Positions 53,865-64,000 of a DNA stretch of 64,000 bases are shown piece after piece. The position numbers were made by a program, and so were the translations under genes. Position 1 is the first letter of the stretch. Every line of letters starts with the position of its first letter. The notes under the pieces were generated by a model. It worked only from the letters and a program-made list of their open reading frames with translations. It had not been told where the DNA came from and made no database searches. This DNA is from Spongiibacter sp. (GTDB lineage: Bacteria > Pseudomonadota > Gammaproteobacteria > Pseudomonadales > Spongiibacteraceae), in assembly GCF_041602295.1 (NCBI RefSeq), contig NZ_JBFIGO010000003.1, positions 6,115 through 70,114 on the forward strand, read 5' to 3'.

Positions 53865-55220
53865 CTACTGAATACCAAAGGCCAACATAGCATCCGCCAC
53901 CTTTTTGAAACCCGCGATATTGGCGCCCTTGGCATAGTCCACATAACCGTCTGGGCGCTTTGCGTACTCGAGGCAGTTACTGTGAATATTCAACATAATA
54001 TCGCGCAACAGGCCCTGCAACTCCTCCTCCCTTAGCATCAAGCGCGTACTGTTCTGACTCATTTCCAAGCCGGAAACCGCCACACCGCCGGCATTGGCCG
54101 CCTTGGCCGGACCAAACAGCACCCGCGCATCGCGAAACACCTTCACACCATCGTTGGTAGTGGGCATATTCGCGCCCTCCACCACCGCCTTCACGCCGTT
54201 TTTAACCAGCAACTCTGCATCCGCTTTGCTCAGCTCATTCTGCGTGGCACAGGGCAAGGCAACATCACAGGGCACTTTCCATGGCCGCTCCCCCTCATGG
54301 AAGGTCGCGCCGGGAAACTCCGCCACATAGTCAGCCAGCTGACCGCTTCGATGCCCCTTGTGCGCCATCACCCAGTGAACTTTTTCCAACGTAAAGCCGT
54401 CCGGGTCATGCACGAAGCCACCGGAATCCGACATGGTTACCACCTTGGCCCCCAACTGCACGGCCTTTTCCGCGGCGTGAGTGGCCACATTTCCGGAGCC
54501 GGACACCGCAACCACCTTGCCTTCCACCACGTCGTTACTGTGCTTGAGCATGTCCTCCAGGAAATAAACAACGCCGTAACCCGTGGACTCCTTACGCACC
54601 AGGCTGCCCCCCCACTCCAGCCCTTTGCCCGTCAACACTCCTACATAGCGGTTGGTAATGCGCTTGTACTGGCCGAACATATAGCCTATTTCCCGCGCAC
54701 CCACGCCAATGTCACCTGCCGGCACATCGGTGTGCTCACCCACGTGGCGGTAGAGCTCGGTCATAAAGGATTGGCAAAAACGCATGACTTCGTTATCAGA
54801 CTTGCCCTTCGGATTGAAGTCGGAGCCCCCTTTTCCGCCCCCCATCGCCAAGCCCGTCAGACTATTCTTGAAGGTTTGCTCAAAGGCGAGAAACTTGAGA
54901 ATGCTCTGATTGACACTGCGATGGAAACGCAAGCCCCCTTTATACGGCCCAATCGCGTTGTTGTTTTGCACCCTATAGCCCCGCTGCACCCGAACGTTAC
55001 CGCAGTCATCCTCCCAGCAGACACGGAAGGAAACCACCCGATCCGGCTCCGCGATTCGGCGTAGAATCTGCGCTGCGTGATAAACCTCCTTGTCTTCGAT
55101 GAAGTCGAAAATATCGACAGCAACCTCATAAACGGCCTGGTGAAACTCGGTTTCGCCGGGATTTCGACGCAGCACCCCGTCCATAAACTGCTCAAGATTA
55201 ACGTGATCGGATACGGCCAT
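53865..55220 (-). CDS. gdhA: NADP-specific glutamate dehydrogenase
   Basis: GPYKGGLRFH, GGGKGGSDF, DVPAGDIGVG, GSGNVA and EGANMP motifs; start MAVSDH with RBS GAGGGG. Confidence 0.95.
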   Translation of the reverse strand: MAVSDHVNLEQFMDGVLRRNPGETEFHQAVYEVAVDIFDFIEDKEVYHAAQILRRIAEPDRVVSFRVCWEDDCGNVRVQRGYRVQNNNAIGPYKGGLRFHRSVNQSILKFLAFEQTFKNSLTGLAMGGGKGGSDFNPKGKSDNEVMRFCQSFMTELYRHVGEHTDVPAGDIGVGAREIGYMFGQYKRITNRYVGVLTGKGLEWGGSLVRKESTGYGVVYFLEDMLKHSNDVVEGKVVAVSGSGNVATHAAEKAVQLGAKVVTMSDSGGFVHDPDGFTLEKVHWVMAHKGHRSGQLADYVAEFPGATFHEGERPWKVPCDVALPCATQNELSKADAELLVKNGVKAVVEGANMPTTNDGVKVFRDARVLFGPAKAANAGGVAVSGLEMSQNSTRLMLREEELQGLLRDIMLNIHSNCLEYAKRPDGYVDYAKGANIAGFKKVADAMLAFGIQ

Positions 55221-55442
55221 GCTCGATTCCCCTCGCGTAAGGCAGTCCTCTATAAGTAATAGACGGCCTGACAGTGTTCGGCCACATTCCTCGCAAACAC
55301 CACACCCACCGCGGGACGGTAAGCTATACTCCTTTTCATCGGGGGTTACCATTGGCGTCGCATTTCGACGCACACCCCAGGACAAACCACCGGAACAAGG
55401 TAGCTAGGGGACACACCATGATGGGTCAGGTGGGGTGATCCA

Positions 55443-58043
55443 GTGACGGATCATTATGAAATTGCCGTTATCGGGGCCGGCCCCGCCGGTCTGAGTGCGG
55501 CCGGTCGAGCTGCAGATCACGACCGAGCAGATCAACTCGCCCAACCCCGCCATATTCTTCTCGAATCCTCGCCACTGCACGCCAACACTATCCAGCGCTA
55601 CCAAAAAGGCAAGCACGTTATGGACGAGCCTGGCTATCTGGATTTGCGCAGCCCGCTAGAATTTGCTGCCGGCAGGCGCGAACACATTCTGCAAACTTGG
55701 GAAGAGGATATCGCCTCCACCGGCATCAACTTGCGCTGCCACACTGAAGTCACCGGTATCAGCGGCCAGCGCGGCGACTTCAAGATCCGCTGCAGTGATG
55801 GCCGCGACATCACTGCAGACAATGTAGTGGTGTCGATCGGCACCCAGGGCAACCCCCGCCGCCTGGGTGTAGACGGTGACACCTCGGCCTTTGTGCAATA
55901 CCAGCTGGACGACCCCGACGAATATAGCGACGAAGATATTGTGGTGATCGGAGCGGGTGATGCGGCTATCGAGAATGCGCTGGCATTAGCGCGCCAGAAC
56001 CGTGTCGTGATCGTGAACCGTCGCGATGAATTCAGCCGCGCCAAGCAGGGCAACCTAGACGCGGTATTAACTGCCATCAACAACCCCAACGTGCCCTTCT
56101 CCTGTCGCTACGGCTCCAGCGTCAAGGCCCTGAGCATTGCTGAAAATGGCGAAGCAGGCAGTATCACCCTGAGCACCCCGCAGGGCGAAGAGACCCTGCC
56201 CTGCCATCGCATCATTGCGCGATTGGGCTCGATCCCGCCACGCAAGTTTGTCGAAGCCTGCGGCATTGAATTTCCCAGCGAAGACATAGAGTCGATACCC
56301 GAGCTGGACGCCCACTATCAGTCCAATGTGCCCGGCCTCTATATCATTGGTGCGCTCGCCGGTTACCCACTCATCAAACAGGGGATGAACCAGGGCTACG
56401 ATGTTATCGAATACATCAAGGGCAATGAGGTAAAACCGGCCGACCACGCCCTGCTGGCACTCAAGTTTGCCCTCCTGCCTTATGGCGCTGATGTCGATGA
56501 TGTGCTGGCCCTGTATCAGCAGCGCATTCCGATGTTTGCCCGCATGAACACACTCGCCTTCCGCGAGCTGATAATGGAAAGCAATATCCACTACGGTGTA
56601 CCCGATCAGCAACAGCTGGAAGAACTGCTGCAACAACGTGGTGAGCTGCGTGAACAGCGTATCGTCGACATTAAGAGCGCACGCCAGCAGGAAGACCAAC
56701 GCCGTGCACAGGCCGGGCGCCCGGCCAAAGTGCGTAAAGAGATTGCGGAACCCGAGATCACGCTGGTCAATGCCGCTGACGACTTTCTGTACCGCGATGG
56801 CGACTACAGCAACAGTTTTTTTACCATAGTAGAGGGCCAGGTGCTGCTACAGGCAGATGGCGGCGCCGATACCCGCCTGGGGCCGGGCCAATTCTTCGGT
56901 GAGATGAGCCTGCTCTCTGGCAGACCCCGCATTGGTAACGCCCAAATCAAAGGTGAAACGATCCTGATCGAAACACCGCGGCGCACCATGGTCAAACTGA
57001 TGGCGGCCAATACGGAAGTCAGCGAGGGGATTGAAGCGGTTTTTCTGCAACGGACCTTGCAGCAGTTTTTCGCGCCCAAAGTCAGTTACAGCGCCCTGCG
57101 CGAAATTGCACGGCAGGTGACCACCAGCCACTTTAATATTGGCGACACCATTTACAGCGAAGGCGAACAGGGTGACCGCCTATACCTCATTCGCAGTGGC
57201 ACGATCGCGCTAACCAAAAGCAGCGCACACGGCGACATCGCGGTAGGCCAGCCCCAGTCGGGAGAAATCTTTGGCCAAATGGCGCTAATGGGTGACGTAC
57301 AGCGCCGCGAAACCGCCAAGGCCTCCGTGCGCTGCGAAGTCATCGAAATTCAACGCCCCCAGTTTCTGGAGCTGCTACGCAAATCCCCCGAGTCTGTCAC
57401 CCGCCTGCAGCAAGATACTACCGCTCAGCTCAAATTGAACGCCCAGCTGGAAGCGGTGCCCGAGAGCGCCTCGGTCATTTCGTTTTTACTTGATCGCGGC
57501 GTCGGCGAAGCAACCAATGTGCTGATTATCAACGAACAGCTCTGTGTAGGCTGCGACAACTGTGAAGTTGCCTGTGCAGAAACCCATGGTGGCGTCTCCC
57601 GGCTGGACCGCAAAGCCGGCGCCCGTTTCGCGCACATCAACCTCCCTATTGCCTGCCGCCACTGCGAAAAACCGCATTGCATGAAAGAGTGCCCGCCCAA
57701 CGCCATACACCGGGATCCCAGTGGCGAAGTGTTTATTGATGACAGCTGCATTGGCTGCGGCAACTGCCAATCCAACTGTCCCTATGGCGTAATTCGCATG
57801 ACCTACCCGACCGAGAAAAAACCCGGCCTGCTGGATTGGTTGTTTTTCGGCCGCGGCCCCGGCCCGGGCGAAGACCGTAATGCCGAACCCAGCGCAACCG
57901 CCAAAGAAACCGGAAAGAAAGCTGTGAAATGCGATGCCTGCGTCAGCCGAGAAGCCGGGCCTGCCTGTGTGCAATCCTGCCCCACAGGCGCCGCAAAACG
58001 TATCAACCCCATACAATTTGTAGAGGTGATTAGCGTAAATTGA
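55443..58043 (+). CDS. Multidomain NAD(P)H/FAD oxidoreductase (TrxB/YpdA/FNR-like) + 2 cNMP-binding domains + 4x[4Fe-4S] DmsB/HydN-like domain
   Basis: GAGPAG and GAGDAA..NRR motifs, and IGALAG. cNMP cassettes FFGEMSLL.GRPR and IFGQMALM..VQRRETA. Sixteen Cys in CVGCDNCEVAC, CRHC..PHC...CP, CIGCGNCQSNCP and CDAC...PACVQSCP. Confidence 0.88.
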   Translation: MTDHYEIAVIGAGPAGLSAAGRAADHDRADQLAQPRHILLESSPLHANTIQRYQKGKHVMDEPGYLDLRSPLEFAAGRREHILQTWEEDIASTGINLRCHTEVTGISGQRGDFKIRCSDGRDITADNVVVSIGTQGNPRRLGVDGDTSAFVQYQLDDPDEYSDEDIVVIGAGDAAIENALALARQNRVVIVNRRDEFSRAKQGNLDAVLTAINNPNVPFSCRYGSSVKALSIAENGEAGSITLSTPQGEETLPCHRIIARLGSIPPRKFVEACGIEFPSEDIESIPELDAHYQSNVPGLYIIGALAGYPLIKQGMNQGYDVIEYIKGNEVKPADHALLALKFALLPYGADVDDVLALYQQRIPMFARMNTLAFRELIMESNIHYGVPDQQQLEELLQQRGELREQRIVDIKSARQQEDQRRAQAGRPAKVRKEIAEPEITLVNAADDFLYRDGDYSNSFFTIVEGQVLLQADGGADTRLGPGQFFGEMSLLSGRPRIGNAQIKGETILIETPRRTMVKLMAANTEVSEGIEAVFLQRTLQQFFAPKVSYSALREIARQVTTSHFNIGDTIYSEGEQGDRLYLIRSGTIALTKSSAHGDIAVGQPQSGEIFGQMALMGDVQRRETAKASVRCEVIEIQRPQFLELLRKSPESVTRLQQDTTAQLKLNAQLEAVPESASVISFLLDRGVGEATNVLIINEQLCVGCDNCEVACAETHGGVSRLDRKAGARFAHINLPIACRHCEKPHCMKECPPNAIHRDPSGEVFIDDSCIGCGNCQSNCPYGVIRMTYPTEKKPGLLDWLFFGRGPGPGEDRNAEPSATAKETGKKAVKCDACVSREAGPACVQSCPTGAAKRINPIQFVEVISVN

Positions 58044-58094: not shown

Positions 58095-58985
58095 ATGTCG
58101 GCCCTGTACGCCAACCTGTTGAATTTCGCCGGGCGTCGCTACCTGAAGTGGGCGGCAATGCTGCTGGCGGTCAGCGTATTGCTCTATCTCAGCCAGGACA
58201 TAGCGCTGCCGCGCAATGGCGGCAGCTGGCAGGGCTACGCGCTGGGCAGCATCGGGCTGCTACTGATTGTCTGGCTCAGCTGCCTGGGTATACGCAAGCG
58301 CGATTACAACAATCAGCGCGGCAGCCTGCAGGCCTGGGTCTCCGCCCATATTTATTTGGGCCTGGCACTGCCACTAATCGCCACACTTCACTGCGCCTTC
58401 CAGTTCGGCAACAACGTCCACACCCTTGCCTACCTGCTGATGTGGACGGTAGTGATCAGCGGCGCCTACGGTCTGTACAGCTACCTGCGCTACCCCTTGA
58501 TGATGATCGGCAACCGGGCAAACAAGGCCTTTGATGAGCGCCTGAAAGAACTCGAGGACAGCGACCAGAACGGTCGGGAAGTTGCCGCGCAATGCAACGA
58601 AACAGTAAACGCGATCGTCAACAGTGCCATTGACCGCAGCAGTATTGGCGGCGGCTTTTTGGATCAGCTGCTGGCTCGAGACCGCTCCACCGTGCTGCTG
58701 CCCGGCGACAGTGGCGAGCTGATGTTACGCAACAATGTCGGCCAACAGGCCGCCATCGACTTTCTGGCTGCCAAAATTCCCGCCACCTCCAAATCCGGTG
58801 AGGCAGAGAAATTGCGCGACTTACTCAGCCTGCTGGGTCGCCGCGCCGAGCTACTGAGACGCCTGCGGCAGGAAATCAGCCTGCAACTGCGTTTGAAAGT
58901 GTGGCTCAGCGCTCACGTACCGCTCACTGCAGCGTTATTAGTCGCACTGGTGGCACACGTCATCAGCGTCTTTTTCTACTGGTGA
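58095..58985 (+). CDS. Five-TM membrane protein with two His-x13-His pairs (NOX/ferric-reductase-like di-heme b)
   Basis: H85/H99 (WVSAH...ATLH) and H274/H288 (WLSAH...VAH); positive-inside residues place both helices in the same orientation. Confidence 0.7.
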   Translation: MSALYANLLNFAGRRYLKWAAMLLAVSVLLYLSQDIALPRNGGSWQGYALGSIGLLLIVWLSCLGIRKRDYNNQRGSLQAWVSAHIYLGLALPLIATLHCAFQFGNNVHTLAYLLMWTVVISGAYGLYSYLRYPLMMIGNRANKAFDERLKELEDSDQNGREVAAQCNETVNAIVNSAIDRSSIGGGFLDQLLARDRSTVLLPGDSGELMLRNNVGQQAAIDFLAAKIPATSKSGEAEKLRDLLSLLGRRAELLRRLRQEISLQLRLKVWLSAHVPLTAALLVALVAHVISVFFYW

Positions 58986-58989
58986 TGTC

Positions 58990-60714
58990 ATGCTGATCCT
59001 TGTTCGTAAAGTCCGCATGCAGAACAACCGCATCGTTGATCAAAACGATGAAGAATTCAGCGCCGAGCATCTAACACTGGGCAGCCGCAGCGACCGTGAC
59101 CTGCAGCTGTTCGGTGACGGTGTCGGCACCGAGCACTGCGTACTCCAACCCCAGCAAAACGGCCAGTTGCTGGTGCAGTGTCAGCCACCACACAAGGTGC
59201 TCAGCGCCAGTGAAACGGGCGAGGGCTTGCGTCAGCTCAGTGCGACAGCAGACCAGTGGCTGCGTATCGGCCCGCACCAGTTTGCACGGGTGGAAGCGCC
59301 GCCAGGCTTTGATGCCGCTATTGAGCTGCGTGTTGATATCGACGCAACCGAGTCGCTAAAACAAAAGCTGCAGCAGGAGTTGACCCTGAAGCTGCCGCGA
59401 ATTCGCCGCCACAGTTATCTGTTGGCCCTGCTGACCCTGGCGGCCACGCTATTGCTGCCCTTATGGGGTTTTTATGACGATGGCGCGCAAGCCCTGCTCG
59501 ACAAGAGCGGCGCACCCAGTGACCGGTTTTGGCTCAGCGGCCCCCTTGCGGCACCGCACCATCTGCCGGGTTTGGCGAACGATTGCAATAGCTGCCACCT
59601 CAAGCCTTTTCAGCAGGTGCCGGACCAAGCCTGTGCGCAATGCCACAACACGACACCGGCGCATTTCGGCGATGCCCATCCCGCTGCGACCCGCCTGGAC
59701 CAAGATTGCGCCGCCTGCCACAAAGAACACAACGAGCCAGAAACACTGATAGTTGAAAACACCGCTCTGTGTGTCGACTGCCATCGCTCAGAACAAGCAC
59801 GCAGCCTTGATAGTCATTTCGCCGTTAGCGGCCACCCAGTAGCAAAAGCCCCCACACAGCTGCGCGCGGCCAGTGCGTTTACCGAAGCCGCGCATCCGGA
59901 GTTTCTACTTGCCCTGCTAAAGCGCGAACCAAACGGCTGGCAGATACAGCGCGAGCGCGCAGCGACTGCCCGTGAGTCGTCTAATCTAAAATTTCCCCAC
60001 GACGTACACACCAGCAGCAACAAGGTCTGGCGCAAGGAGAAAAACGGGCAACAACGTGCACTGCACTGTGGTGACTGTCACCAACTTGCCGACGACGGCG
60101 AACATTTTCAGCCCATCACCATGGAAACCCATTGCGCCGACTGCCACAGCCTCAGTTTTGACGACGCGGCTCCCTATCGATCGCTCCCCCATGCTCAAGC
60201 TGATGTGGTGGAAACCTACCTCGCCGAATTCTACGTTAAACAGCTTGCCGAGCAGCTGCGTTTGGCCGCAGCCCCACCACCGCGCTGGGTCCCGGCGCGC
60301 GATCTCGACACCCTGTGCCCCTCGCGCGATCCGCTGCAATGCGGCCTCGCCTGGGCCGACCGGGAGATCAGCCAGCTGTTTCAAACCAGCGGCTGCGTCG
60401 ATTGTCACGAAGTGGATCAGCACGACGGGCGCTGGCAAGTACGCGAGGTCAGGCTGACGCAGAACTGGATGCCCGAGGCGCGCTTTGATCACCGCCCGCA
60501 TCTCAGCGCCACCGTCGATGGCGAGGGCTGTCTGCGGTGTCACCAGGCCGACCGTTCCTCGCACAGCCGGGATGTATTGATGCCCAGTTTGGCAGACTGC
60601 ACCGCCTGCCACGGAGAGAAGCAATCCCAGGCCGTGCTGTTGCAGTGTATTGATTGCCATAGTTTTCATCGCACCGGTATGCCGGCAATGCTAAAGGCGG
60701 AGACACTGCCATGA
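58990..60714 (+). CDS. Membrane-anchored decaheme cytochrome c with N-terminal FHA-like domain
   Basis: Ten CxxCH motifs: CNSCH, CAQCH, CAACH, CVDCH, CGDCH, CADCH, CVDCH, CLRCH, CTACH, CIDCH. One TM after RIRRH; FPHDVH and FDHRPH distal-His motifs. Confidence 0.88.
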   Translation: MLILVRKVRMQNNRIVDQNDEEFSAEHLTLGSRSDRDLQLFGDGVGTEHCVLQPQQNGQLLVQCQPPHKVLSASETGEGLRQLSATADQWLRIGPHQFARVEAPPGFDAAIELRVDIDATESLKQKLQQELTLKLPRIRRHSYLLALLTLAATLLLPLWGFYDDGAQALLDKSGAPSDRFWLSGPLAAPHHLPGLANDCNSCHLKPFQQVPDQACAQCHNTTPAHFGDAHPAATRLDQDCAACHKEHNEPETLIVENTALCVDCHRSEQARSLDSHFAVSGHPVAKAPTQLRAASAFTEAAHPEFLLALLKREPNGWQIQRERAATARESSNLKFPHDVHTSSNKVWRKEKNGQQRALHCGDCHQLADDGEHFQPITMETHCADCHSLSFDDAAPYRSLPHAQADVVETYLAEFYVKQLAEQLRLAAAPPPRWVPARDLDTLCPSRDPLQCGLAWADREISQLFQTSGCVDCHEVDQHDGRWQVREVRLTQNWMPEARFDHRPHLSATVDGEGCLRCHQADRSSHSRDVLMPSLADCTACHGEKQSQAVLLQCIDCHSFHRTGMPAMLKAETLP

Positions 60715-62699
60715 GAGTATTGCCGGCCTTACTGCTGAGCCTGACACTGTCCGGCTGTTTACCCGGCGGCGATCGCGACAACCAGGACGGCGCACGCGGC
60801 TCCAATGCCGGCAGCCGCTGCGACGGCAGCTGTGCCAATGCCAGCACCTTTCTCAGCCCTGCTGATGTCGAACAAGTGATCCGACAGGCCGCCGCCGAGG
60901 CAAAGGCCTTGAACGTTGGCGCCACCATTGCCGTGGTCGACCGTGTCGGCAATGTGCTGGCGGCCTACCGGATGGACGAGGTGCTGACCGGCAGCGTCGG
61001 CGAGGTCACCATCGCTTCCAACCCTGGCGGCACGCCCATTGCGGCCGGCCTGGAAAGCCTGAAACTGCCCATCAGCGCTGGCGCCGATGCCTTAGCCGCC
61101 ATTGCCAAGGCCATTACCGGCGCCTACCTGTCCAGCGAAGGCAACGGCTTCAGCACCCGTGTGGCCAGCCAGATTGTGCAGGAGCATTTTAACCCCGGCG
61201 AGCGCAACCAGCCCGCGGGCCCGCTGTTTGGCGTGCAATTCAGTCAACTGCCCTGCTCTGACTTCTCGCTGGACGCCAGCAACCCCGCCACCCTGGTCGG
61301 CCCCAAACGCTCACCGCTGGGGCTATCAGCCGATCCGGGCGGCTTTCCACTGTATAAGAACGGCACACCGGTGGGCGGCATTGGTGTTATCGCCGATGAT
61401 TTCATCTACTCGCTGGACAAGAACATCAGCGACAGCGACCGGGATTTCGATGAGCTGATTGCGCTGGCCGGGACCTTTGGCTATGCCGTGCCCGCCGACC
61501 GACAGGCCGACCACATCACGGTCGACGCCAAGACCCTGCGTTACAGCGATGTCGACTTCGACGACCTGAGCGCCAATCTCACCTCGCCACCAGCACTGGT
61601 GCTGGGTGTCGATGGTTTGCTGGTCTCGGTGCCCGATTACTACGACAGCGCCAATGGCTATCTCGGCGGGCAGGCCTTTGGTGAAGCCGCCTCCGGGGTC
61701 CGCCCGGATACCACACACTTTCCCGGTCGCGATGCCTTTGTGTTCGTCGACCAAGCCAACATGGAACGCTTCCCGCCCAGTGCGGGCAGTGCATTGACGG
61801 CCGCCGAGGTACGCACGCTGATTGACCAGGCGTTGTCGGTCGCCAACCGGGCGCGCGCGCAAATCCGTCGCCCGCTGGGCTCCCCTGCCAGAGTGACGAT
61901 CAGCGTGGTGGACATCGACGGCAGCGTCCTGGGTATCGCCCGCAGCCGCGATGCGCCGGTCTTCGGTGCTGATGTCTCACTGCAAAAAGCCCGTACCGCA
62001 ACGCTGTTCTCCTCCAGTGACGCGGCCGACTTCATCAGCAACCTACCGGACACCCAGTACCTGACACCGACCCTGACCCAGTCAACCACCGTACAGCTGG
62101 TCGACTATGTTCAGAACGTGATTAATTTAACCGGTGACGCCAACGCCCTGCGCGATGGCATTGCCTTTGCCGACCGCTCCGGTGGCAACCTCTCCCGGCC
62201 GTTCTACCCCGACGGTATCGACAGCGCCCAGACGGGCCCACTCAGCAAAGCCCAGGGTGAATGGAGCCCCTTCTCCACCGGACTGCAGCTGGATATGAGC
62301 ATGAATGCCATCGTGCGCCACCTGCTGCATGAGTTTGATCCCACTAACGTCAGCGACGTCGGCAAGAACTGCGTCGGCGTGCCCTTTCCCAGCGATGCCA
62401 GCATCGCGAGTGCGAGGGCAGCCAATGGCATTCAGATTTTTCCTGGCAGTGTACCGGTGTACCGCGGCCTGCAGCTGGTGGGCGGCATTGGTGTATCCGG
62501 TGATGGCGTCGACCAAGACGATATGATTGCGTTTCTCGGCGTACATCAGGCCGGCCAGATACTCGGCACCCTGAACAATGCCCCGGCGAGTATCCGCGCC
62601 GATACCCTCAGCCCTGGCGGCGTCAGACTGCGCTATATCAGCTGCCCTCAATCACCCTTTAACGACAGTGATGAACAAGATGCCTGCGCGGGGAAGTAA
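60711..62699 (+). CDS. Lipoprotein with two GlcG/HbpS-like (heme-binding) domains
   Basis: LSGC lipobox; repeated IAVVDRVG/ISVVDIDG, AKA.T/QKARTA and GGFPL...VGGIGV/GSVPV...VGGIGVSG motifs; ATGA overlap with the cytochrome gene. Confidence 0.82.
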   Translation: MRVLPALLLSLTLSGCLPGGDRDNQDGARGSNAGSRCDGSCANASTFLSPADVEQVIRQAAAEAKALNVGATIAVVDRVGNVLAAYRMDEVLTGSVGEVTIASNPGGTPIAAGLESLKLPISAGADALAAIAKAITGAYLSSEGNGFSTRVASQIVQEHFNPGERNQPAGPLFGVQFSQLPCSDFSLDASNPATLVGPKRSPLGLSADPGGFPLYKNGTPVGGIGVIADDFIYSLDKNISDSDRDFDELIALAGTFGYAVPADRQADHITVDAKTLRYSDVDFDDLSANLTSPPALVLGVDGLLVSVPDYYDSANGYLGGQAFGEAASGVRPDTTHFPGRDAFVFVDQANMERFPPSAGSALTAAEVRTLIDQALSVANRARAQIRRPLGSPARVTISVVDIDGSVLGIARSRDAPVFGADVSLQKARTATLFSSSDAADFISNLPDTQYLTPTLTQSTTVQLVDYVQNVINLTGDANALRDGIAFADRSGGNLSRPFYPDGIDSAQTGPLSKAQGEWSPFSTGLQLDMSMNAIVRHLLHEFDPTNVSDVGKNCVGVPFPSDASIASARAANGIQIFPGSVPVYRGLQLVGGIGVSGDGVDQDDMIAFLGVHQAGQILGTLNNAPASIRADTLSPGGVRLRYISCPQSPFNDSDEQDACAGK

Positions 62700-64000
62700 C
62701 TGCCATAACGCGGTGCTGGCCGGCGTGCTGGCGGCCTTGCTGCCACACGCGACCTACGGGCAGGCGGCACGTATTTGCGAAAGGCCCGCTGCCGGCGACC
62801 CCAGTATCCCTGCCCGCAACGACGGCTGCGCGCGCAGAACGGCGCCAACCGGCAAGCGCATTGCCACCCCCAGCCTAAACGACTACAGCCCCGCCCAAGC
62901 CATGCCGGACCGCTGGCGAATTGTCGATGCACTGGGCTATGAAAGTCGCTGGTACGACCCCTACAACCGCAACACACTGAAAGGCGATGCCCCCCTTCAC
63001 GGCGACTGGTTCTTTGCCACCACTCTCATTTCAGACACCGTGTTTGAAGATCGCAAAGTCCCTACACCGGTTGGCTTGCAAAGTACCCGCAGCGCGGGCG
63101 ATCTGGATTTGCTCGGCGGCAGCAGTCAAACCCAGCTGGTTCAATCACTGGCCGTCGAATTGGTGTATTACAAGGGCGACACCGTATTTCGCCCACCGGA
63201 CTATGAATTTCGGCTGACACCAGTGTTCAACTACAACGACACCCAACTAGACGAAATCCTCGGCATCAATGTCGATCCCGCTAAGAAAAACAGCCGTTAC
63301 GACAACTTTGTCGGCTTCCAAGCGGCCTTTGTCGACGTCCACCTGCGCAATGTTTCGCCGCGCTACGATTTCGACAGCATCCGCGTCGGCATCCAGCCCT
63401 TTACCGCTGATTTTCGCGGTTTCCTGTTTCAGGACAGTCCCTTTGGGATCCGCCTGTTTGGCACCCGCGACAACAACATTTTTCAGTACAACCTGGGCTG
63501 GTTCCGGCGTCTGGAAAAAGACACCAACAGCGGCTTGAACGACGCCGGAGAAGCGCTGCGCGACGACGATATTTTTGTCGCCAACCTCTACTGGCAGGAT
63601 ATGCTGGCCAAGGGCCACATGAGTCAGTTCACGCTACTCTACAACCGCAACCGGGAAAGCGATTTCTTTTTTGACAATAACGGGTTTATTCAGCGACCCG
63701 CCTCCTTTGGCCGCGAGAGCCCCCGCAAGTACGATGTTGTCTATCTCGGCTTCAATACCGACGGGCATGTTGAGCGACTAAATATCACCAGCGCTTTTTA
63801 TGTTGCCCTCGGCCAGCAGGACGGCTCCCCCTTCACTGGCGATGACAGTGACATCCGCGCACTTTTCGCCGCCGCAGAGCTATCGTTTGATCGCGACTGG
63901 ATTCGCTGGCGCGCATCGCTGCTCTACGCTTCCGGTGACGATGATCCCTTTGACGATGTTGAAACCGGCTTCGACGCCATACTGGAATCCCCCCTGTTTG
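62671..64000 (+). CDS. Probable outer-membrane beta-barrel protein, 3'-truncated (absent from the ORF track)
   Basis: Frame 1 is open from ATG 62671 (or 62680) to the window end. Signal-like VLAGVLAALLPHATYG/Q, PDRWRIVD...WYDPYNRNTLKGD, then amphipathic strands (YNLGWFRRLEKDTNSG, YLGFNTDG, WIRWRASLLYASGD). Confidence 0.75.
   Translation, partial: MNKMPARGSNCHNAVLAGVLAALLPHATYGQAARICERPAAGDPSIPARNDGCARRTAPTGKRIATPSLNDYSPAQAMPDRWRIVDALGYESRWYDPYNRNTLKGDAPLHGDWFFATTLISDTVFEDRKVPTPVGLQSTRSAGDLDLLGGSSQTQLVQSLAVELVYYKGDTVFRPPDYEFRLTPVFNYNDTQLDEILGINVDPAKKNSRYDNFVGFQAAFVDVHLRNVSPRYDFDSIRVGIQPFTADFRGFLFQDSPFGIRLFGTRDNNIFQYNLGWFRRLEKDTNSGLNDAGEALRDDDIFVANLYWQDMLAKGHMSQFTLLYNRNRESDFFFDNNGFIQRPASFGRESPRKYDVVYLGFNTDGHVERLNITSAFYVALGQQDGSPFTGDDSDIRALFAAAELSFDRDWIRWRASLLYASGDDDPFDDVETGFDAILESPLF

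Follow-up and report, generated by a model that had tools for sequence, protein, structure and literature searches.

A PCC4-Type Inner-Membrane Protein of Spongiibacter sp. with Two WX3HX13H Helices as a Candidate Di-Haem Relay between an Fe-S Flavoprotein and a Decahaem Cytochrome

Introduction

The closest described counterparts of the protein studied here are the "IMPs", the inner-membrane subunits of the putative porin-cytochrome clusters PCC3 and PCC4, which were characterized by He et al. (2017, Front Microbiol 8:1584, PMC5566968) as proteins of ~300 aa with five transmembrane (TM) helices, an SGXXG motif on TM4 and a WX3HX13H motif on both TM3 and TM5. Those authors likened the IMP to the ferric reductase domain (FRD) of FRE/NOX and to cytochrome b, proposed that it holds two b haems, and favored a quinone-linked role for it. 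In this study, we analyzed a protein of this kind, 296 aa in length, that is encoded by the second gene of a tightly packed operon in Spongiibacter sp. (assembly GCF_041602295.1, contig NZ_JBFIGO010000003.1, positions 6,115 to 70,114 of the forward strand). These 64,000 nucleotides are referred to as the window, and positions are counted from its first letter.

He et al. recorded PCC4 subgroup II in marine Zeta-, Gamma- and Alphaproteobacteria and Planctomycetes, with an Fe-S (PF13247) gene upstream of the IMP gene, a porin gene, and cytochromes bearing 10, 5, and 4 haem motifs, while subgroup I (Hyphomicrobium) had no Fe-S gene; they saw no significant homology between the IMPs of PCC3 and those of PCC4 (PMC5566968). 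Another comparable system is a gene triad of Ferrigenium straubiae, consisting of a [4Fe-4S] protein, a 5-TM protein and an FHA-nonahaem cytochrome, which was expressed in every condition tested and in which the 5-TM protein, having no redox motif in InterPro, was proposed to be a binding platform (bioRxiv 10.64898/2026.01.22.701106). The Spongiibacter locus resembles it, as judged by description, in having the same gene triad and an FHA-anchored multihaem cytochrome, and differs in that the cytochrome there has nine haem motifs, not ten. The "uet" cluster of Tenderiales was also considered and set aside as a different system.

Compared by published description, the Spongiibacter protein has all of the features of the PCC4 IMP: 296 aa, five TM helices, both WX3HX13H motifs and S122-G-A-Y-G126. 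Its surroundings match subgroup II, with a PF13247 gene upstream together with genes for a decahaem cytochrome, a 621-aa barrel candidate, a 10-CXXCH LVIVD protein and a c554-like protein (4 CXXCH and 1 CX4CH). Judged on motifs and gene order, it is most likely the inner-membrane subunit of a PCC4-type cluster, and fits subgroup II. A preliminary description of the window had presented the protein as hiding a NOX-like scaffold for two haems. As set out above, the same motifs and the same NOX/FRD-like two-haem idea were already in the literature (PMC5566968). Beyond that work, our analysis adds homology between the PCC3 and PCC4 IMPs, an Fe-S flavoprotein partner in both types, and relatives in at least 592 species genomes. 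A likely, though by no means assured, function of the protein is that of a relay in which two stacked b haems, an inner one held by H85/H274 and an outer one held by H99/H288, pass electrons from the product of the gene upstream (gene 1) to a decahaem cytochrome.

Results

Motifs and Topology of the Membrane Protein

The features of the gene for the membrane protein are as follows.

58095..58985, + strand: membrane protein gene (gene 2, candidate IMP), 296 aa, from open reading frame (ORF), motif scan and AlphaFold2
58335..58391, + strand: TM3 motif W81-x3-H85-x13-H99, with the proposed axial ligands H85 (inner haem) and H99 (outer haem)
58419..58421, + strand: H109, fifth invariant His of PCC4-type members, at the periplasmic start of TM4
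58458..58472, + strand: TM4 motif S122-G123-A-Y-G126 (SGxxG), giving small residues to the cytoplasmic half of TM4, the helix that separates the bis-His helices
58488..58895, + strand: cytoplasmic insert, residues 132-267 (136 residues), between TM4 and TM5
58902..58958, + strand: TM5 motif W270-x3-H274-x13-H288, second proposed haem-ligand pair

Hydropathy and the secondary structure of an AlphaFold2 model made from 49 homologues (predicted local distance difference test (pLDDT) 92.2, predicted template modelling score (pTM) 0.82) placed the five membrane helices at residues 15-32, 45-67, 78-100, 108-131, and ~268-295. The ORF translation contains the pairs H85-x13-H99 and H274-x13-H288 exactly as they had been reported in the preliminary description, and two or more H-x13-H spacings arose in only 231 of 200,000 shuffles of the 296-aa sequence. 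Each pair is preceded by a similar pentapeptide, WVSAH at residues 81-85 and WLSAH at residues 270-274. An internal duplication of TM3 and TM5 was considered and was rejected, since hhalign (0.2%) gave it no statistical backing outside the short motif.

Basic residues are clustered after TM2 (R67-K68-R69) and before TM5 (RRAELLRRLR..RLK), and the periplasmic-side loops are poor in Lys and Arg, with one in loop 39-44 and none in loop 101-107. Charge counts assign the N-terminus, loop 68-77 and the insert to the cytoplasm and assign loops 39-44 and 101-107 and the C-terminus to the periplasm. It follows from this distribution of charge that TM3 and TM5 are parallel, both running from the cytoplasm to the periplasm. 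The predicted topology sets H85 and H274 close to the cytoplasmic face and H99 and H288 close to the periplasmic one, and thus the basic clusters and the charge counts agree with the orientation that had been claimed for these helices.

The soluble domain of ~135 aa that had been noted between TM4 and TM5 is indeed present, at 136 residues. It contains 20 Lys/Arg residues, and this charge, along with its position, points to the cytoplasm. DSSP analysis of the AlphaFold2 model resolved it into extensions of TM4 and TM5, three more helices and one beta-hairpin. The insert is a possible docking surface for an Fe-S domain or an FHA domain.

Conservation and Spread of the Family

The residues proposed to ligate haem are strongly conserved. 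All four (H85, H99, H274 and H288) are invariant among the 49 homologues, and in a broader sample of 120 representatives, each from a separate 50%-identity cluster, they were kept in 118/120, 120/120, 110/113, and 111/115 sequences, respectively (the denominators 113, 115, and 116 at TM5 positions are the numbers of residues present). The preliminary description had named loss of these His in homologues as a ground for refutation; their conservation is 96-100% across this diverse set. The Trp residues that open the two motifs are nearly as constant (W81 in 114/120, W270 in 111/116), as is the SGxxG motif, where S122 was found in 101/120 (with T in 17), G123 in 120/120, and G126 in 119/120. Across the 120 representatives, conservation of the four His, the two Trp and SGxxG is thus 92-100%, except for S122 at 84% (98% when Thr is counted). 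Other conserved positions include G47-Y48-x-L50-G51 on TM2, K68-R69 (kept in 113/120 and 118/120 representatives, respectively), N107, and H109 (118/120), the last being a fifth His that the preliminary description had not named. Position 272 is mostly Y/L/F and position 273 mostly L/V/F among the representatives, and therefore the conserved repeat is W-x3-H-x13-H, not W-x-S-A-H. The latter was correctly read before both pairs in this protein, but the "SA" of its second copy varies among homologues.

The conserved small residues lie at the depths of the His pairs. At the level of H99/H288, the periplasmic end of TM2 has GYxLG, and at the level of H85/H274, the cytoplasmic half of TM4 has SGxxG. 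Such matched depths are what would be expected if two porphyrins were sandwiched in the TM2-TM5 bundle.

The family is large. A word-indexed search returned 1152 matches among the scored candidates, and a profile search returned 3108 representative clusters at E <= 1e-3. In a family-diverse sample of the class, 23 of 300 genomes were positive. Carriers are common among heterotrophic marine and soil Gammaproteobacteria, not among iron oxidisers alone, and culturable ones include Marinobacter salexigens, Steroidobacter flavus and Kineobactrum.

PCC3-Type Relatives

The family profile gave weaker matches (E about 1e-12) to proteins of 300-320 aa encoded beside cytochromes with 19-26 haems, and these loci are PCC3-like by gene context. 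When the IMPs of the two types were aligned by hhalign, the match had a probability of 99.5% (E = 1.4e-22) over 259 columns, with the four His, both Trp and SGxxG in register. This sequence comparison indicates that PCC3-type and PCC4-type IMPs are homologous, a finding that adds to those of He et al. (2017). It also ties the Spongiibacter protein by sequence, if indirectly, to the published IMP family.

In all four of the PCC3-like loci that we inspected (L148-L151, from four other Gammaproteobacteria), the IMP gene is adjoined by a divergently oriented gene for a flavoprotein of 431-437 aa with two [4Fe-4S] motifs (Fer4) and a Pyr_redox_3 domain. The four flavoproteins are 59-65% identical to each other. 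As an Fe-S flavoprotein partner is thus found in two differently built systems, the triad of Fe-S flavoprotein, bis-His membrane protein and multihaem cytochrome recurs independently. In one of these loci a CcmH/CycH-type TPR gene lies between these genes.

The alignment also bears on H109, which had been a candidate for a core haem ligand and was rejected, as the aligned position is Asn in PCC3-type IMPs. With N107 (58413-58415) this residue forms an N107-x-H109 motif at the periplasmic mouth of TM4 that is invariant in PCC4-type proteins and absent from PCC3-type proteins. The motif may be a contact, or a proton or propionate partner, specific to the decahaem acceptor.

The Operon and its Synteny

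The genes around the membrane protein gene, several of which lie on the contig beyond the window, are listed below.

55443..58043, + strand: gene 1, 866 aa, cytoplasmic, with a Pyr_redox FAD/NAD(P)H domain, two cyclic nucleotide monophosphate (cNMP)-binding domains and a 16-Cys four-cluster ferredoxin domain
58990..60714, + strand: gene 3, 574 aa, in which an FHA-like segment at the cytoplasmic N-terminus is followed by one TM helix (143-161), and which has ten CXXCH
60711..62699, + strand: gene 4, 662-aa lipoprotein with an LSGC lipobox and HbpS/GlcG-like repeats (PF03928, 3 stretches)
62671..64000, + strand, running off the window: gene 5, about 590-620 aa, no Pfam family, signal-like N-terminus, C-terminal aromatic (...NAVLTY)
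past the window end: gene 6, 1251 aa, ten CXXCH and LVIVD repeats
past the window end: gene 7, 452 aa, cytochrome c554-like, 4 CXXCH and 1 CX4CH
after the cytochrome genes, L006:7640-10910 (contig just past the window end): PP2C phosphatase of 260 aa, 2xFHA protein of 298 aa and, on the opposite strand, Ser/Thr protein kinase of 498 aa

We propose that the product of gene 1 donates electrons to the membrane protein. It has the nucleotide-binding motifs GAGPAG and GAGDAA and was found by Pfam to match PF13247 (2e-12) and to have Pyr_redox_2/3, cNMP and Fer4 domains, while its ferredoxin domain gave sub-threshold NCBIfam matches to subunits of the HydN/DmsB/NrfC/HybA type. A dehydrogenase encoded separately from the membrane protein had been noted, and gene 1 is the candidate for it; rather than a NOX dehydrogenase domain of the FNR type, it encodes a Pyr_redox flavoprotein that includes a polyferredoxin domain. 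The proposed periplasmic acceptor is the decahaem product of gene 3.

The order of these genes was compared in 80 related loci from named genomes, which included Spectribacter, Zhongshania, Halieaceae, Steroidobacteraceae, Woeseiaceae, Arenicella, Wenzhouxiangella, Marinobacter salexigens, and Rhodanobacteraceae. Gene 1 is directly upstream of the gene for the IMP in 74 of the 80 and gene 3 directly downstream in 79, the sole exception being a locus that stops at a contig edge; gene 4 was found in 69/80 and gene 5 in 60/80. In Rhodanobacteraceae/Lysobacterales loci a RimO-like gene takes the upstream place of gene 1. Gene 1 was found elsewhere in the genome in 5/5 tested genomes in which the two genes are not adjacent.

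A fusion of the two genes was found in a metagenome-assembled genome (MAG) of Magnetococcus sp. YQC-9 (MEO5345780.1, P0252), where one polypeptide of 1110 aa joins gene 1 to gene 2 through a 7-residue linker and has a 40-residue insertion in the TM2-TM3 loop. A gene 1-gene 2 fusion was also noted for Oceanospirillum beijerinckii by He et al. (2017, PMC5566968). If real, these fusions argue that the N-terminus of the membrane protein is cytoplasmic and that the two proteins form a physical complex. Single-sequence structure prediction of the 1110-aa fusion was uninformative (pLDDT 36).

Discussion

Proposed Electron Path

The conserved His and Trp residues, the parallel TM3 and TM5, the SGxxG motif and the locked gene order are the reasons why the Spongiibacter protein fits a bis-His relay of two haems. 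A helical H-x13-H spans ~21 Å, which matches the haem-haem spacing of cytochrome b and NOX. We propose that H85 on TM3 and H274 on TM5 would hold the haem on the cytoplasmic side and that H99 and H288 would hold that on the periplasmic side, with room for the porphyrins provided by the faces of TM4 and TM2 that bear SGxxG and GYxLG, respectively. Four-cluster ferredoxins of the DmsB/HybA/FdnH/NrfC type dock on a membrane subunit in known complexes. In our model, the four-cluster ferredoxin domain of gene 1 would deliver electrons at the cytoplasmic face, perhaps with that domain docked on the 136-residue insert, and the electrons would then hop via the two haems to the membrane-anchored decahaem cytochrome c. 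Onward from there, they could pass to the HbpS-like lipoprotein, the porin, the 10-CXXCH LVIVD cytochrome and the c554-like cytochrome. The logic would be that of a split NOX-like or FdnH-FdnI-like wire that is independent of the quinone pool.

The direction of flow that we favor, by inference, is the export of electrons from NAD(P)H. This is because electrons leaving NAD(P)H, at -320 mV, move outward downhill, with help from the membrane potential, while both of these would oppose an inward flow from Fe(II) to NAD(P)+. The two cNMP domains of gene 1, the FHA head of the decahaem protein and the neighboring kinase, phosphatase and FHA genes suggest that the conduit is tightly gated. More specifically, the kinase/PP2C/FHA neighbors and the FHA-like head of the decahaem protein suggest phospho-threonine control.

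If the relay is real, the protein would carry out the inner-membrane crossing in an electron conduit that spans the envelope and is very widespread. How electrons cross the inner membrane is less well understood than any other part of extracellular electron transfer, Shewanella and Geobacter aside. We tentatively advance, as an idea still short of probable, that the IMP and the flavoprotein form a quinone-independent transmembrane NAD(P)H:multihaem-cytochrome oxidoreductase, a split analogue of NOX containing Fe-S clusters, that is gated by cyclic nucleotides and Ser/Thr phosphorylation, and that this core is common to PCC3 and PCC4 and at work in hundreds of Gammaproteobacteria, most of them marine and soil heterotrophs. 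A path from NAD(P)H to Fe-S clusters to b haems to c haems without quinones would, if true, be a new coupling of cytoplasmic reducing power to the outside of the cell.

Relation to NOX, Ferric Reductases and Cytochrome b561

The protein is similar in layout to NOX, FRE and MsrQ (PF01794), having an N-in topology and bis-His pairs on parallel TM3 and TM5 with one helix between them. Those proteins stack two haems across the membrane, and the same is proposed here by analogy. The MsrQ-Fre pair likewise has its dehydrogenase on a separate polypeptide (PMC5676040). Unlike NOX and the FRD proteins, the Spongiibacter protein has five TM helices, not six, with the 136-residue cytoplasmic insert before TM5; where those have an FNR-type domain, its apparent partner is a Pyr_redox flavoprotein that carries four [4Fe-4S] clusters, and its apparent acceptor is a multihaem cytochrome, not O2, an Fe(III) chelate or MsrP.

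There is also a likeness to cytochrome b561, FdnI and HyaC (PF01292), the nearest Pfam family by score. That family shares the H-x13-H helix, and in it a four-cluster ferredoxin (FdnH, HybA) feeds a membrane subunit with two b haems. The differences are that the haems there are ligated from three helices (TM1, TM2 and TM4) of a four-helix bundle, and that the bis-His helix runs the opposite way, with the Fe-S subunit in the periplasm. PF01292 (prokaryotic cytochrome b561) was touched by 42 of the 49 homologues, with a best score of 29.2 bits against a cut-off of 30.1, and both bis-His helices matched the same H-x13-H helix of the profile, as single-helix matches only. DUF4405 was touched by 18/49 homologues, and PF01794 (Ferric_reduct) by only 6/49, with E values of 0.2-0.8.

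A number of results weigh against the proposed relay and its kinship to known haem proteins. The 296-aa protein had no Pfam or NCBIfam match over cut-off. In hhalign comparisons with profiles that we built from genomes of the class, probabilities were 0.1-0.6% for the MsrQ-type FRD profile and 10-31% for the cytochrome b561 profile, the latter matches being local and of one helix; neither is significant. As a control comparison of the FRD and b561 profiles themselves reached only 1.5%, this test is of little power, and therefore its negatives rule out close membership, not distant kinship. When the model was compared with the PDB by Foldseek, the lowest E was 0.29, and the 50 matches listed included no natural haem membrane protein; this program handles all-helical membrane folds that have a large insert poorly. 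The top rows by probability were the four-helix bundles of periplasmic sensors (TorS, McpS), which probably match the cytoplasmic helical insert. Searches of PDB sequences with hidden Markov models found no sequence-related solved structure, giving coiled-coil noise in the insert only, and the insert (132-267) had no structural or sequence relative in the PDB. No experimental follow-up or evidence of haem for any member of the family was found in the literature searched, in which only three papers name both PCC4 and multihaem cytochromes. With regard to the partner, gene 1 was not found upstream in 6 of the 80 loci (in L124, only 118 bases lie there), indicating that it is not strictly needed in cis, and the Magnetococcus fusion, a lone case from a MAG, could be an artefact of assembly or gene calling (a lost stop codon).

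Membership in the NOX/FRD or cytochrome b561 families is therefore not supported. The comparison with NOX in the preliminary description is partly supported, as a functional analogy: the conserved His and Trp residues, the parallel TM3 and TM5, SGxxG and the gene linkage agree with a NOX-like scaffold for two haems, but no relatedness or similarity of fold to NOX, ferric reductase or MsrQ was found, and the Foldseek check against NOX and MsrQ that it had proposed gave no match below E = 0.29 in the PDB.

Alternative Functions

The published hypothesis is that the IMP acts as a quinone-active cytochrome b (PMC5566968), in which case the upstream flavoprotein would be regulatory or would serve another step. 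Here, by comparison, the gene linkage points to an NAD(P)H flavoprotein-FeS partner. The lack of an Fe-S gene in PCC4 subgroup I (Hyphomicrobium) and the non-adjacency of gene 1 in Rhodanobacteraceae/Lysobacterales loci fit a link to quinones, as does the fact that the nearest Pfam family, PF01292, consists of quinone-reactive b cytochromes. We nevertheless consider this explanation unlikely, if still a serious contender. No quinone-site motif was identified in the 296-aa protein, gene 1 co-occurs in every genome tested, the unlinked cases included, and four-cluster ferredoxins of the DmsB/HybA/FdnH type usually attach to a membrane subunit. Fusions of gene 1 to gene 2 have been reported in two taxa, and a second Fe-S flavoprotein of different construction stands beside the PCC3-type relatives in 4/4 loci. 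It is because an Fe-S pyridine-nucleotide flavoprotein accompanies both types of IMP that a direct wire is favored over the quinone-linked model.

Other functions would have the protein bind no haem, or bind it in passing. The 2026 preprint on Ferrigenium straubiae (bioRxiv 10.64898/2026.01.22.701106) saw no redox motif in the 5-TM protein there and suggested a platform, and the Spongiibacter protein, without a database family match, might similarly be a cofactor-free scaffold that tethers the Fe-S protein to the decahaem cytochrome. This seems improbable to us, as four near-invariant intramembrane His at an exact x13 spacing, along with the Trp and Gly residues, in two divergent families would be hard to explain, and as a scaffold leaves no path for electrons across the bilayer from the Fe-S clusters to the c haems. 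We give even less credence to a role in handling haem or another metal, for example as a factor for haem export or delivery that binds transiently in the manner of CcsBA/CcmF. Such a role would suit a gene that is always beside many-haem cytochromes, and the CcmH/CycH-type TPR gene adjoining in one PCC3-type locus, but the protein lacks a WWD or Trp-rich periplasmic domain and matches none of CcsA, CcmF and ResB, and symmetric W-x3-H-x13-H pairs at two depths suit fixed, stacked haems over a channel. The two-haem relay from gene 1 to the decahaem cytochrome thus remains our preferred explanation for the conserved features of this protein.

Additional Observations on the Locus

The product of gene 5 is probably the outer-membrane porin of the cluster; its full length and C-terminus were read from the contig beyond the window (L006). 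As listed, its ORF overlaps the end of gene 4 (62578-62699), and the likely start Met is at 62671 (MNKMPARG...), so that the longer ORF from 62578 is probably an over-extension. Upstream of the operon, a divergent ORF at 53865-55385 (- strand) is glutamate dehydrogenase-like, 506 aa as listed and probably shorter. As this ORF is divergent, the operon starts in the 55386-55442 gap.

Among the related loci, one (L106, CAMAQZ010000018.1) is labelled "MAG: Klebsiella pneumoniae" and contains the whole cluster, with an IMP that is 46% identical to the 296-aa protein. Its gene order is that of the marine and soil relatives, and the Klebsiella pneumoniae label is probably an error of binning or taxonomy.

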